From a virus (taxonomy: Duplodnaviria; Heunggongvirae; Uroviricota; Caudoviricetes), in the IMG/VR virus record IMGVR_UViG_2698536454_000011: a stretch of DNA of 4,020 nucleotides; one strand, 5' to 3'. Below are positions 1 through 4,020 of this stretch, piece after piece. Position numbers and translations under genes: made by a program. The notes under the pieces are model-generated. The model had not been told where the DNA came from. It worked only from the letters and a program-made list of their open reading frames with translations, and searched no databases. Position 1 is the stretch's first letter, and each line of letters begins with the position of its first letter.

Positions 1-1014
1 CACATCCCACGCCTTGCGCTGTGTGGTCAGGTACGCATTACAGGTGATGCGCGGCTCCGTGCCGCCAAAACCGTCCGGCACCGACTGGTCGCAGTACTGG
101 CCGATGACATACAGCGCCCATTTATCCACATCTGCCGCACCAAGACGTTTCCCCATGCCGTAGCGCGGATGGGTCAGCATATCCCACAGACACCAGGCCA
201 TGTTGTTGCTGTATGCTGGCTTAAACGTTCCGTCCCAGATACCGCTGTATTGCCGCGTCTGCGGGTTATAGTTCGACGGCACCTGCAGAATGCGCCCGCG
301 AAGATGATAATTACGGCTCACCTGCTGGCTGCCGAACTGCTCCGAGTCCACCTGCACGCCGACCAGTGCCGTGTTCGGGTAGCACTGTTTCACATCGATA
401 ATTTCGGTGTATGACGACCAGAGCGTTTTGTTCTGCAGCTGGTCTGTGGTGCTGTCCGGCGTCATCCTGCGCATCCGGATATTAAACGGGCGCGGCGGCA
501 GGTTATCCACCACCACCGAGGCCAGATACTGTGAAGTGGTTTTGCCCTTAATGGTGATGTCTTTTTCTGTCACCCAGCCACCGTTACGTTGTATCTGAAC
601 CAGCAGGCGGACTTCCGACGGATTCCTGTCCCCCTTTGAGGTGGTTTCCACCAGTGCCTGCACACCGAAGGTAAAGCGCAGACGGTCGATATTTGCAGAC
701 GTGATGGTCCGGGTGATCGGCGTGTCATATTTCACTTCCGTACCCAGCACCGTCTCGGAGCCGGAGGATTCAAATCCCTCCGGCGGAGTCTGCTCCTGCT
801 CACCTGCCCGGAACACCACCGTGACACCGGAGATGTTGGTATTCCCCTCAGTGTCCAGCACCGGCGTATTGTTCAGCAGCACGCTTTTTAATCCATCCAC
901 CGGACCTTCAATCGGCCCTTCACTGATGGCATCAATCACACTCAGCAACTGCGTGGATTTCAGGTTGTCCTTCGCTTCGCGCGGGGTATGCCCCTTACTG
1001 CTGCCTTTACCCAT
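1..1014 (-). CDS. J: Tail tip / host-specificity central fibre protein J, N-terminal 338 codons; gene continues beyond position 1 of the window (3' end not in window)
   Basis: Minus-strand frame starting at ATG (plus-strand 'cat' at 1012-1014) reads MGKGSSKGHT..., and the frame is open to position 1, where it reads ...NNMAWCLWDMLTHPRYGM...DGFGGTEPRITCNAYLTTQRKAWDV. Both stretches match lambda gpJ as I recall it. Absent from the ORF track only because it has no stop inside the window. GGAG lies 8 nt upstream of the ATG. Confidence 0.95.
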   Translation of the reverse strand, partial: MGKGSSKGHTPREAKDNLKSTQLLSVIDAISEGPIEGPVDGLKSVLLNNTPVLDTEGNTNISGVTVVFRAGEQEQTPPEGFESSGSETVLGTEVKYDTPITRTITSANIDRLRFTFGVQALVETTSKGDRNPSEVRLLVQIQRNGGWVTEKDITIKGKTTSQYLASVVVDNLPPRPFNIRMRRMTPDSTTDQLQNKTLWSSYTEIIDVKQCYPNTALVGVQVDSEQFGSQQVSRNYHLRGRILQVPSNYNPQTRQYSGIWDGTFKPAYSNNMAWCLWDMLTHPRYGMGKRLGAADVDKWALYVIGQYCDQSVPDGFGGTEPRITCNAYLTTQRKAWDV

Positions 1015-1022
1015 TCGTCATG

Positions 1023-1026
1023 CTCC
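1023..1026 (-). promoter_or_regulatory. Shine-Dalgarno (GGAG) for J
   Basis: Plus-strand 'ctcc' at 1023-1026 gives GGAG on the minus strand, 8 nt upstream of the J ATG at 1014. Confidence 0.55.
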
Positions 1027-1036
1027 ATAAACGACA

Positions 1037-1056
1037 AAACCGCCCGGAGGCGGTTT
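1037..1056 (-). terminator. Perfect 8-bp stem / 4-nt loop hairpin in the I-J spacer, followed on the coding strand by a T-rich tract; candidate attenuator, RNA-stability or partial intrinsic terminator element
   Basis: Plus-strand 1037-1044 'aaaccgcc', loop 1045-1048 'cgga', 1049-1056 'ggcggttt' (exact reverse complement). On the minus strand this reads AAACCGCC-UCCG-GGCGGUUU followed by UGUCGUUUAU and then the J ribosome-binding site. Confidence 0.35.
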
Positions 1057-1074
1057 CACATAAAACATTTTGCA

Positions 1075-1722
1075 TCAGCGACCAATCACCACAACCTGAC
1101 CACCGTCCCCTTCGTCTGCCGTGCTGATCTCCTGAGAAACCACCCGCGACCCCACACGCATTTCACCGTACAGAACAGGCAAAACATTGCCCTGAGCAAC
1201 CATGTTATCCAGTGAGGAAAAATAGGTGTTCTGTTTGCCGTTATCTGTACTGGCTGCCGTGGACGTCCTGGCTTTCGGTGCCAGCATCTGCGCCACACCG
1301 CCCAGGATCATACTGGCCCCTGCCGCATACATGCCCGATACAGCCGCGGCACCCAGCCAGCCCACAGGGTTCCACCATGCCACCGCAATCAACGCCGCCC
1401 CCAGCACCACCTGAAACACACCGCCACTTTTAGCTCCCGCCAGACGCGGCACGATATGGATCACGGCACCATTTGCCAGCGGCTCATTAAGACGGGCAGA
1501 TAATTCGGTTTCACCTGCATCACGCCCGGCAATGCGCACCTGATACCAGCCGTCATTCAGTTTCTGACGAAACGCCGGGAGCTGTGTGGCCAGCGCCCGG
1601 ATGGCTTCGGCCCCCGTTTTCACACGAAGGTCGATGCGGCGGCCAAATCGTTGCAAATCCCCGTAAAGGCAGATGCGTGCCATGCCCGGTGACGCCAGAG
1701 GGAGTGTGTGCGTCGCTGCCAT
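1075..1722 (-). CDS. I: Tail tip assembly protein I (215 aa); ubiquitin-like N-terminal region ending in Gly-Gly, hydrophobic Gly/Ala-rich middle segment, conserved C-terminus
   Basis: ORF-track protein MAATHTLPLASPGMARICLYGDLQRFGRRIDLRVKTGAEAIRALATQLPAFRQKL...TDNGKQNTYFSSLDNMVAQGNVLPVLYGEMRVGSRVVSQEISTADEGDGGQVVVIGR matches lambda gpI at the N- and C-termini as I recall it. Position is between K and J as in lambda. Start lies inside the 3' end of K. GAGG is about 12 nt upstream of the ATG. Confidence 0.93.
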   Translation of the reverse strand: MAATHTLPLASPGMARICLYGDLQRFGRRIDLRVKTGAEAIRALATQLPAFRQKLNDGWYQVRIAGRDAGETELSARLNEPLANGAVIHIVPRLAGAKSGGVFQVVLGAALIAVAWWNPVGWLGAAAVSGMYAAGASMILGGVAQMLAPKARTSTAASTDNGKQNTYFSSLDNMVAQGNVLPVLYGEMRVGSRVVSQEISTADEGDGGQVVVIGR

Positions 1723-2363
1723 TTGTCGGTATACCTCTCTCGTTTGCTCAGTTGTTCAGGAATATGGTGCAGCAGCTCGCCGTCGCCGCAGTAAATAGCG
1801 GCATGATTCGGCACCGATGAACCAAAACAGCACAGCAGCACATCGCCCGGCTGCGCCGCTGACAACGGCACCTGATACAGCCCTGTGGCCTCCAGATTAT
1901 CCAGATAGAGATTCTGACCGTTACGCCACCAGTCATCCCCGCGATGAAAATCCGGCATCTCAATCCCCGCCAGATGGTAAGCATCCCGGAACAGCGTGTA
2001 ACAGTCCGTCACCCCGTGCTCAAAGCGCCGCCCGGTGAGATGCGGCACACAGCGGAATTTATGAATCTCACCCCGGCAGACCAGCCACCACGGCAAATCA
2101 CTCTGCACCTGCAGCCGCCGGTCAGCCTCACTCAGCCAGGGCAGACCACCGGGGTGGCTGTGGACCAGCGCCACAATCTCACCCTGCATTTCTGCCCGCA
2201 GCCAGTCTTCCGGCGACATACGGAAATACGCCTCCGGCTCACCGGAGATATTCACGCAGGGGAAATATCTTTCCCCCTCCGGCGTGCTTACCACGAAGCC
2301 GCACGACTCCGCTGGCGCACATCGCCGGGCGTGCGCCAGAATCGCTGATTCTGTCTGTGTCAT
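1620..2363 (-). CDS. K: Tail tip assembly protein K, long form (247 aa): N-terminal JAB/MPN (JAMM) metalloprotease-like domain plus C-terminal NlpC/P60 cysteine-peptidase-like domain. The classically annotated 199-aa lambda K corresponds to an internal start at 2219
   Basis: ORF-track protein MTQTESAILAHARRCAPAESCGFVV...ALVHSHPGGLPWLSEAD...GVTDCYTLF...PNHAAIYCGDGELLHH... From M49 (MSPEDWL...) onward it matches lambda gpK as I recall it. The stop overlaps I by 103 nt, the same geometry as lambda. The 5' boundary is uncertain between 2363 and 2219. Confidence 0.85.
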   Translation of the reverse strand: MTQTESAILAHARRCAPAESCGFVVSTPEGERYFPCVNISGEPEAYFRMSPEDWLRAEMQGEIVALVHSHPGGLPWLSEADRRLQVQSDLPWWLVCRGEIHKFRCVPHLTGRRFEHGVTDCYTLFRDAYHLAGIEMPDFHRGDDWWRNGQNLYLDNLEATGLYQVPLSAAQPGDVLLCCFGSSVPNHAAIYCGDGELLHHIPEQLSKRERYTDKWQRRTHSLWRHRAWHASAFTGICNDLAAASTFV

Positions 2364-2368
2364 GGGAT

Positions 2369-3067
2369 TTACTGCGAAAGTTTGTTAATGGAAAGGAAGC
2401 CGCCAAAGTTGCCGACATTATTGCGAAACTTACAGCCACTCAGGCATTTGCTGCATTTATCCTTCGTGATATCGGACGTCGGCTGGTCATATTCATCCGC
2501 GACCGCCGGACCGTTATAACCGCACTCATCACCGCGATAGGTCCAGGTGCAGGTATTAGCCAGCATGATGCGCCCCGGAAAAACGGCACCATCCGTTTCA
2601 GTCGGCGTGGACAGTACAAAGGAGGCACTGACCGCGCTCAATTCGCTGCACTGCTCGATGCGCCAGCGGCTAATCACCTCCTGCTCCGGATCGGCGTCGC
2701 TGTTTCCGTTGACGAAGTTCACCGCATCCAGAAAACGGGCGTAAACCTTACGCCGGACCACCGTTCCGCCGACCAGACTCTGCAGATCTTCCGCCATCCC
2801 GGTGACCATACCGTGCAGGTTAGAAACCGTCAGTGTCGGACGGGCAGCACTGCCCTTGCCGTTCAGTTCAAATCCTGTCCCCTGAATGGGGTATGCCTGA
2901 TACTGCCGCCCCTGCCAGGTAACCGGCTCACCTTTTTCGTTCTGCTCATTACAGAAAAAATAACGTTCACCACCGACCTCTGTCAGATCGATTTCCCAGA
3001 GCACCACCTGGGCTGACTGAGTGAGGCGTGTCGTCTCATGATGTGTTTCCTGTGGAATATCCTGCAT
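2369..3067 (-). CDS. L: Tail tip assembly protein L (232 aa), with C-terminal cysteine cluster (iron-sulfur cluster-binding in lambda gpL)
   Basis: ORF-track protein MQDIPQETHHETTRLTQSAQVVLWEIDLTEVGGERYFFCNEQ...ANTCTWTYRGDECGYNG...KDKCSKCLSGCKF...LSINKLSQ matches lambda gpL as recalled, with the same length. GGAGG is 5 nt upstream of the ATG. Position is between M and K. Confidence 0.95.
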   Translation of the reverse strand: MQDIPQETHHETTRLTQSAQVVLWEIDLTEVGGERYFFCNEQNEKGEPVTWQGRQYQAYPIQGTGFELNGKGSAARPTLTVSNLHGMVTGMAEDLQSLVGGTVVRRKVYARFLDAVNFVNGNSDADPEQEVISRWRIEQCSELSAVSASFVLSTPTETDGAVFPGRIMLANTCTWTYRGDECGYNGPAVADEYDQPTSDITKDKCSKCLSGCKFRNNVGNFGGFLSINKLSQ

Positions 3068-3072
3068 CAGAG

Positions 3073-3077
3073 CCTCC
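3073..3077 (-). promoter_or_regulatory. Shine-Dalgarno (GGAGG) for L, overlapping the M stop codon
   Basis: Plus-strand 'cctcc' at 3073-3077 gives GGAGG on the minus strand, 5 nt upstream of the L ATG (3067). The M stop TAG occupies 3077-3079. Confidence 0.6.
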
Positions 3078-3406
3078 TATGCCACGACCTGTTCAAAATC
3101 TGCCGTTATGGTTACCCACAGCGCCCCCACGCTTGCCGACCATTTACGACAAACCACCCTGATCGGTTTCCAGTCATAAGGTGGCGTCCACTGAAATGCA
3201 CGGACGCCACCGTGCCGTTCCAGAAAGGCTTTTAAAGATGGGTGTTCACATTTACGAACACGTATCGTCACGCTGTAAGTCGACAACTGGTTATTCAGTC
3301 CCGCCGCACGACGCTGTTCATAACCATCGCCCAGCTTCACTGTCACCACTTTCGGCTCTGATACCACATTCATATCCGGGCGCACTTTCCAGTGAAACGT
3401 CTCCAT
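3077..3406 (-). CDS. M: Tail tip assembly protein M (109 aa)
   Basis: ORF-track protein METFHWKVRPDMNVVSEPKVVTVKLGDGYEQRRAAGLNNQLSTYSVTIRVRKCEHPSLKAFLERHGGVRAFQWTPPYDWKPIRVVCRKWSASVGALWVTITADFEQVVA matches lambda gpM as recalled, with the same length. Its ATG overlaps the H stop codon (TAATG). Confidence 0.95.
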   Translation of the reverse strand: METFHWKVRPDMNVVSEPKVVTVKLGDGYEQRRAAGLNNQLSTYSVTIRVRKCEHPSLKAFLERHGGVRAFQWTPPYDWKPIRVVCRKWSASVGALWVTITADFEQVVA

Positions 3407-4020
3407 TACCGATATGCTCCACTTAACCGACCACCATCACGGGCCTGCTGTTGCATAAAGTCCGCTGCCGCTTTTTTCCCGAGGTCATAAACCGCCTTCA
3501 GGGCAGCCGGACCTATCTGCCCGTTCGTGCCATCGTTATTGATCTCGATGTTGTACTGCGGGGAAAACATCGCCATACCTGAACCCCCAATATCCGCCAC
3601 AACCCCCAGCTTACCGTCAGCACCACGACGCAATGGCAAAATGGCTTCAGGTCCCGCTTCCCCCATCACACCCGCGCCTTTTGCAAAAGCAAAAAACGTC
3701 GGACGGTTAACCACCGTGCCACTGTAACGACTCAAATCAGCAGACTGATAAATCCCCCCATTGGCATTCAGGGAAAGGCTGCTGAGATCAAATCCCAGTA
3801 CACTGCCAATCCCTTTTATCGATTTCATCATGGTTGCCTGCGCCAGGATTTTCGCCATATCTGACAGCACAGAAGAGGTGAAGGATTTGAAATTGAGTTT
3901 GCCGGTAGTGACAAAAGTTGTAAGCGTCGTCTCAGCACCGTCTGGCAGATCCTGAAATTCCTGAGAGAATAGTGGACACCAAATATGGTGGACGCTATCC
4001 ATGAAATCATTAACCGCAGT
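3406..4020 (-). CDS. H: Tail tape-measure protein H, C-terminal ~204 codons; gene starts beyond the window end (5' partial)
   Basis: The minus-strand frame is open from the window edge (4020) to the TAA at 3406-3408. The track ORF 3406..4002 starts at an internal Met; the codons upstream (...TAVNDF-MDSVHH...) contain no stop. Position immediately upstream of M, and the Gly/Ala/Ser-rich C-terminus, are consistent with a lambda-type tape-measure protein. Confidence 0.9.
   Translation of the reverse strand, partial: TAVNDFMDSVHHIWCPLFSQEFQDLPDGAETTLTTFVTTGKLNFKSFTSSVLSDMAKILAQATMMKSIKGIGSVLGFDLSSLSLNANGGIYQSADLSRYSGTVVNRPTFFAFAKGAGVMGEAGPEAILPLRRGADGKLGVVADIGGSGMAMFSPQYNIEINNDGTNGQIGPAALKAVYDLGKKAAADFMQQQARDGGRLSGAYR

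Follow-up and report, generated by a model that had tools for sequence, protein, structure and literature searches.

Organization of the tail gene cluster and the K reading frame

The DNA analyzed here (the window) is a stretch of 4,020 nucleotides from a virus of the class Caudoviricetes (IMG/VR record IMGVR_UViG_2698536454_000011), in which the minus strand encodes a portion of a tail gene cluster of the lambda type, in the order M-L-K-I-J. All features described below lie on that strand and are given in window coordinates unless a lambda position is stated. The 3' end of H (3406..4002) is followed by M (3077..3406; Pfam Phage_min_tail), L (2369..3067; Pfam Phage_tail_L, E = 1.6e-99), K (1620..2363), I (1075..1722; Pfam Lambda_tail_I on residues 14-97, phrog_32), which comprises a ubiquitin-like domain and a C-terminal plug domain, and the start of J (ATG at 1014). 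K matches phrog_30 (minor tail protein) with E = 3e-164, and this match and the M-L-K-I-J gene order together place it in the lambda gpK family. The nearest phage record is mEp460, with 98.2% DNA identity across K; lambda DNA is 96.9% identical to the K gene of the window.

Both the list of open reading frames and direct inspection of the sequence give a K frame of 247 codons plus stop, running from an ATG at 2361..2363 to a TGA at 1622-1620, as a preliminary description of this DNA had reported. This ATG is the first possible start for K: the frame is closed by a stop 8 codons further upstream, and no other start codon intervenes. The L stop codon, TAA (2369..2371 on direct check), is followed by ATCCC and then by the K ATG, leaving a gap of 5 nt, and pairing of the region upstream of Met1 with the anti-Shine-Dalgarno sequence is calculated at +0.7 kcal/mol, that is, no Shine-Dalgarno at all; the earlier description of this junction thus holds. 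The classical lambda K is shorter. In J02459, the interval 14276..14875 is labelled 'K (tail component;199)', a 199-residue product that corresponds to initiation at the internal codon Met49 (2217..2219; lambda 14276), and a Shine-Dalgarno-like GGAGG (2231..2235) does lie 11 nt before that codon, as had also been noted. The predicted N-termini are accordingly MTQTESAILAHAR from Met1, which we infer to be the true start, and MSPEDWL from Met49, and the difference between the two models is an extension of 48 codons (residues 1-48; 2220..2363). An open stretch of this length would arise by chance with a probability of (61/64)^48, or ~0.10, and is unremarkable alone. The evidential weight therefore falls on profile matches, conservation and structure, which for the extension go far beyond chance.

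The extension completes a predicted JAMM/MPN+ domain

The zinc motif of a JAMM protease, H68-S69-H70-x7-S78-x2-D81, is present in K as HSHPGGLPWLSEAD (residues 68-81; 2121..2162), in agreement with the preliminary description. The glutamate that completes the motif, E-x(n)-H-S/T-H-x7-S-x2-D, is E19, encoded by a GAG codon at 2307..2309 within AESCGFVV, and it lies upstream of Met49, again as first described. Its assignment as the catalytic, water-positioning residue draws on conservation and on alignment to the E-x-C-G segments of characterized structures. When K was compared with PDB sequences using phmmer, residues 7-109 aligned to 2KKS, a JAMM-like protein, which pairs APAESCGF with LPNEACGL; the family profile likewise aligns E19 with the glutamates of 2KCQ (YPEEGCGF) and PfJAMM1 (SVEVCGF). 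The full set of motif residues (E19, H68, S69, H70, S78 and D81) is contained in the 247-residue protein.

Profile searches give the same picture. The 247-residue K scores 52.7 bits against Pfam Prok-JAB (PF14464), with residues 3-105 covering profile positions 3-113 of 114, so that the domain envelope begins at residue 3, well before residue 49. The form beginning at Met49 scores 23.8 bits, under the curated gathering threshold of 25 bits, and residues 1-48 by themselves match profile positions 3-41 (E = 5.8e-5). An AlphaFold2 model built from an alignment of 89 sequences (A1, described below) has a mean pLDDT of 97.1; it was used in place of a single-sequence run, which gave a pLDDT of 35 and was discarded. 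In the A1-based model, a helix (residues 3-15) and two strands (21-27 and 30-36) from the extension are part of the N-terminal domain, which adopts the MPN fold and superposes on PfJAMM1 over 107 residues, and a Foldseek search with the K model recovered the same families. A product starting at Met49 would begin in the middle of this predicted fold, which bears out the earlier expectation that such a protein would lack part of the MPN fold together with its catalytic glutamate.

The closest known proteins on the JAMM side are the prokaryotic JAMM/MPN+ proteases of PF14464, among them Pyrococcus furiosus JAMM1 (5LD9/5LDA, a SAMP2 deconjugase), the Haloferax desampylase HvJAMM1, and DSY2949 (2KKS). 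Unlike these, K has an NlpC/P60 domain fused to the JAMM domain and functions in the assembly of phage tails, with its peptidase role being a prediction; its score against the NCBIfam desampylase model is 29.7, far under the equivalog cut-off of 130. The NlpC/P60 (C40) domain occupies residues 111-224 (1692..2033), scoring 47.7 bits against NLPC_P60 (PF00877; cut-off 23) over profile positions 1-105 of 105, with conserved D120, C121, H187, H199 and H200, so that the catalytic Cys and His are both conserved, and the predicted model has a papain-like fold in this region.

The last 21 residues of K (227-247; 1620-1685) are very poorly conserved, with a mean column identity of 0.12 compared with 0.54 in the NlpC/P60 core, and they coincide with the overlap onto the start of I in another frame.

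Conservation of the extension among relatives

When 1.84 billion representatives were searched exhaustively with HMMER, 2781 relatives of K were returned. Full-length relatives of 230-260 residues, at 35-61% identity, align query residue ~4-10 to their own residue ~4-12, which puts the N-termini of these proteins in register with Met1. Conservation was quantified in A1, which contains 89 sequences (the query and 88 homologues at 32-59% identity to it). Within A1, G22 and N38 of the extension are invariant, E19 is Glu in 99% of sequences (and in 96 of the 97 unique K proteins from the genomic loci described next), and P17, C21 and F47 are conserved at 92% or above; these six positions are among the best-conserved columns across the 88 homologues. 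The remaining motif residues behave comparably, H68, H70 and D81 being invariant and S69 and S78 conserved at 94% or above. Mean column identity is 0.41 over residues 1-48 and 0.46 over residues 49-110.

At the nucleotide level, we gathered related genomic loci with a 13-sequence alignment, obtaining 72 non-truncated loci from Escherichia, Citrobacter, Budvicia, Gilliamella, Pasteurellaceae, Oceanisphaera and others. In 71 of the 72, the frame continues uninterrupted to a start codon no more than a few codons away from Met1, with no stop or frameshift in the extension. Relative to two relatives at 88% identity, codons 2-48 carry 12 synonymous and 3-4 non-synonymous changes, giving a Nei-Gojobori dN/dS of 0.06-0.08; across all comparisons the extension has a dN/dS of 0.04-0.5, similar to that of the remaining gene (0.11-0.31). 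The extension is thus conserved at the amino-acid level with synonymous-dominated change, a substitution pattern that indicates purifying selection, and the 48 codons are real coding sequence. The three computational checks suggested in the preliminary description, on the profile envelope, on amino-acid conservation and on stops or frameshifts, all favored the long form. A parallel scan of viral contigs yielded relatives at 96-100% identity only, and served for the census of insertions and deletions reported below and not for the tests of divergence.

One K subfamily, found in prophages of Pseudescherichia, Phytobacter, Rahnella and Erwinia (four loci), has a shorter N-terminus in which D-E-V-C-G/A replaces P-x-E-x-C-G, with the glutamate kept and Pro17 lost. 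In these loci the L stop and the K start share bases in a TGATG.

The L-K junction and probable initiation at Met1

In most of the 45 distinct L-K junctions, the distance between the L stop and the K start is -1 to +11 nt. The two codons overlap as TGATG in loci of the Enterobacter, Atlantibacter and Erwinia types, Pasteurellaceae carry GGGGT or GAGGT within the end of L, and the lambda-like group has no Shine-Dalgarno whatever at the K start; a few loci have 250-870 nt inserted between the two genes. The stop/start proximity typical of a translationally coupled pair is therefore found at L-K not only in the window but across relatives. This conserved juxtaposition fits termination-reinitiation coupling, and K initiation is most likely coupled to translation of L, such that ribosomes terminating on L would re-initiate at the K ATG 5 nt downstream.

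The tight junction is broken in seven of the loci. Carriers of an L-K insert include several Budvicia and Pasteurellaceae prophages, and in Stx2 phage 1717 (NC_011357.1, 49823-51342) K is immediately preceded by an anti-repressor gene (ant); in that phage, similarity to the window sets in only around codon 9 of K, a gene annotated with 193 residues.

Two further in-frame codons, GTG24 and GTG37, were considered as starts and rejected: both lie downstream of E19, the N-termini of the family align to Met1, and their Shine-Dalgarno sequences are weak or misplaced.

The Met49 codon and its upstream GGAGG

The preliminary description had left two readings of the locus, either that the long form is the functional enzyme or that two isoforms are made. 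The first of these is the one that the data support. The second would have the 247-residue protein accompanied by a 199-residue product initiated at Met49 from the GGAGG, in which the NlpC/P60 domain is intact and the JAB domain reduced to a crippled remnant, both proteins being used in tail-tip assembly. Several observations give this idea some appeal. The GGAGG pairs with the anti-Shine-Dalgarno sequence at -9.5 kcal/mol, as strong as the start of L (-10.2 kcal/mol), and it stands 11 nt before the ATG that ends at 2219, whereas Met1 has no Shine-Dalgarno of any kind; gene callers often pick the Met49 start; and Iyer et al. noted that the K versions of some prophages consist of the NlpC/P60 domain alone (PMC1779556).

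Comparative evidence points the other way. Position 49 is Ile in 64% of A1, and of the 134 K sequences taken from the loci, 103 have ATG as codon 49 and the other 31 have ATT, ATC, ATA, CTG or GTT; these 31 include three near relatives of the window K (one with ATA, two with CTG). The GGAGG lies within GAG-CCG-GAG-GCG, the codons for E42-P43-E44-A45, and it is kept in two Stx-type relatives in which codon 49 is ATC. Since no ATG follows it there, the coding sequence for E-P-E-A explains the element; more distant relatives have neither the GGAGG nor Met49. The spacing of 11 nt also exceeds the usual optimum for a Shine-Dalgarno, and in the AlphaFold2 model the Met49 product would begin inside the MPN fold. 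We accordingly regard production of both isoforms as unlikely, and a second isoform conserved across the family is unsupported by these comparisons. Within the lambda-like clade, Met49 might still act as an occasional, adventitious start. A narrower version confines the idea to this clade, where Met49 and a strong GGAGG coincide. There, a 247-residue JAMM plus NlpC/P60 form and a 199-residue NlpC/P60-only form might be made in a ratio set by L-K coupling and serve different tail-tip steps, with one of them, for example, processing the ubiquitin-like domain of gpI and the other having a role elsewhere; this version, too, seems to us improbable.

A separate short transcript from an internal promoter was also considered and rejected, with no sigma-70-like promoter being found in window positions 900-2500.

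A missing base in the lambda reference sequence

The origin of the 199-residue model can be traced to a single nucleotide. The lambda reference reads GGAGGCTATTTCCGTATG where the window and every other sequence read GGAGGCGTATTTCCGTATG, so that one G, at window position 2229, is absent from J02459/NC_001416 (between lambda 14266 and 14267). In the extract of NC_001416.1 covering 13300-15600, the gap falls at positions 966-967, within GGAGGC-TATTT, compared with GGAGGCGTATTT in all other lambda and lambdoid sequences examined. It is 10 nt upstream of the annotated lambda K ATG. Because of this one missing G, the lambda RefSeq sequence translated from the upstream ATG (lambda 14133) goes out of frame after 45 residues, and only a 76-codon open reading frame remains.

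Among ~130 loci, the G is absent only in NC_001416.1 and its parent, J02459.1. It is present in LC730321 (Lambda_AGU, 48,503 bp), PV340536 (Lambda), KT232076, DE3, HK630 and a lambda imm21 hybrid. In addition, at least 10 contigs are identical to the lambda reference at all 2301 aligned positions bar the one-base gap; these represent lambda DNA present as a contaminant in assemblies of unrelated genomes, together with two contigs from IMG/VR. In a MutaMouse study, '14266 C>CG' is tabulated among the constitutional differences between its lambda-gt10 transgene and the reference, with nothing said about K (PMC6760142, Table 5), and the same variant list contains 137 AG>A (PMC6760142). Our literature search found no explicit statement tying the 14266 G to the K frame, the variant table being the one place where the base appears. 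The most economical reading of these comparisons is that the missing G is an error in the 1982 lambda sequence and not a real strain difference. Read with the G, the sequence of lambda itself encodes the same intact 247-residue K.

Contigs identical to lambda, 23 in the genome contig set and mostly at ~1x coverage, occur in assemblies whose labels include Neobacillus, Pseudoxanthomonas, Pseudomonas, Chromatium, Shewanella, Enterococcus, Paenibacillus, Bradyrhizobium, Kitasatospora and Vibrio, and they evidently reflect contamination of public genomes by lambda control DNA.

Considering all of the above, we favor a reading in which K is translated from the ATG at 2363 as a 247-residue cytoplasmic tail-assembly peptidase with a complete JAMM/MPN+ domain and an NlpC/P60 domain, and in which the 199-residue K is an annotation artefact; we give this a probability of roughly 0.88. 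The artefact would have arisen when, with the G omitted and the upstream part of the gene out of frame, the next in-frame ATG with a GGAGG was taken as the start, the short model afterwards being copied into other records and also picked by some gene callers. The opposite position takes the 199-residue form as the genuine product and the 48 codons before it as a non-functional relic or an independent small open reading frame. It can appeal to the 199 residues given by the lambda reference and UniProt TIPK_LAMBD, to the assumed viability of lambda with the published sequence, to the lack of a Shine-Dalgarno at Met1 and to the out-of-frame 76-codon frame upstream in the reference, but it is very improbable given that, in a set of ~130 sequences with six independent records of lambda or its derivatives, J02459/NC_001416 alone lacks the G, and that the extension is under purifying selection, holds the most conserved JAB residues and is required both for the Pfam threshold and for the predicted MPN fold.

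Annotation status of K

The two gene models coexist in public databases. The short model is found in RefSeq lambda, UniProt TIPK_LAMBD, DE3, HK630 and the imm21 hybrid, the last of which annotates the GGAGG as a ribosome-binding site; KT232076 begins K at GTG37, giving 211 residues; and the long model is used for mEp460, PPompW, Gifsy-2 and a 2025 Lambda record. Protein clusters of 247 and 199 residues have thousands of members each, with the PF14464 annotation on the 247-residue ones only. The exact K of the window occurs on at least 1000 contigs, annotated with 247 residues as 'C40 family peptidase' or 'Predicted metal-dependent protease of the PAD1/JAB1 superfamily'. Entries that NCBI PGAP names 'C40 family peptidase' or 'phage tail protein' (247 residues; E. 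coli prophages, mEp460, cdtI, PPompW and Gifsy-2) are identical or near-identical to it and follow the same long model, mEp460 YP_007112090.1 having 247 residues and Gifsy-2 STM1046 being a 245-residue 'Lambda gpK homolog'. The 247-residue gene model is therefore correct but already known, and is the prevailing annotation of this exact protein; the two-domain architecture of K was likewise published in 2003-2006.

The orthologue in lambda is gpK (TIPK_LAMBD; J02459 AAA96551, 199 residues), which occupies the same place between L and I and is ~97% identical to the window K over the common 199 residues. Residues 1-48 are missing from the reference entry for gpK owing to the one-base gap in the reference DNA, whereas LC730321 and PV340536 encode the same 247-residue form as the window. 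That the missing G at lambda 14266 explains the truncated reference K is a useful correction and not a discovery, but one with practical consequences: K as given in RefSeq NC_001416 and UniProt TIPK_LAMBD has a JAMM domain from which the initial helix, two strands and the catalytic glutamate are missing, and a 'K' cloned by reference coordinates would be a truncated and probably JAMM-dead protein. Interaction maps, complementation experiments, structure predictions and CRISPRi designs built on NC_001416 would be affected.

A candidate role for full-length K in processing gpI

The presence of a JAMM motif in lambda K has been reported (PMC300881), and K proteins have been described as a JAB domain joined to NlpC/P60 and encoded adjoining gene I, the product of which has an N-terminal ThiS/MoaD-like ubiquitin fold with a conserved terminal glycine (PMC1779556). 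On this basis Iyer et al. proposed in 2006 that the JAB domain of K releases the ubiquitin-like domain from gpI (PMC1779556). In the full-length protein, residues 1-108 are predicted to form a complete JAMM/MPN+ metalloprotease domain (E19, H68, H70, S78 and D81), and residues 111-226 an NlpC/P60 cysteine peptidase domain (C121, H187 and H199). The JAMM domain could then cut the ubiquitin-like N-terminal domain off gpI after a Gly-Gly, freeing the plug domain. In the I protein of the window, the ubiquitin-like domain (Pfam residues 14-97) is followed by AKSGG (residues 97-101; 1420-1434) and then by hydrophobic VFQVVLGAALIAVAWW, making the ubiquitin-style Gly-Gly of AKSGG a plausible candidate cleavage site for K. 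In the lumen of the lambda tail tip, residues 135-223 are the only part of gpI resolved (PMC10721106), and cleavage by the JAMM domain would free this C-terminal plug domain. Zinc binding, peptidase activity and cleavage of gpI by K are in each case predictions, and the 247-residue form makes directly testable a hypothesis now twenty years old, that K is a deubiquitinase-like enzyme clipping the ubiquitin-like domain from gpI.

For the second domain, the closest known proteins are NlpC/P60 (C40) peptidases such as MepS/Spr, CwlO and LytE. K differs from them in having neither a signal peptide nor cell-wall-binding domains, and gpK is absent from virions, where mass spectrometry did not detect it (PMC10721106); for these reasons a peptidoglycan substrate for K would be conjectural.

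The start of I is itself annotated inconsistently, in a mirror image of the K problem. The I frame from the ATG at 1722 has a Shine-Dalgarno of -9.3 kcal/mol and carries Lambda_tail_I on residues 14-97, while the mEp460 RefSeq record and PV340536 (Lambda) begin I at a GTG at 1623 that overlaps the K stop (GTGA), a choice that costs ~20 residues of the ubiquitin-like domain. The K/I overlap is probably 103 nt, or 64 nt if I starts from the ATG at 1683. Finally, the spacer that separates the stop of I (1075) from the start of J (1014) contains a stable hairpin, AAACCGCC-UCCG-GGCGGUUU, followed by a U-rich run (1030-1061); its minimum free energy is -16.2 kcal/mol, with z = -4.4 relative to shuffled sequences, and it went uncalled by a simple terminator scan.
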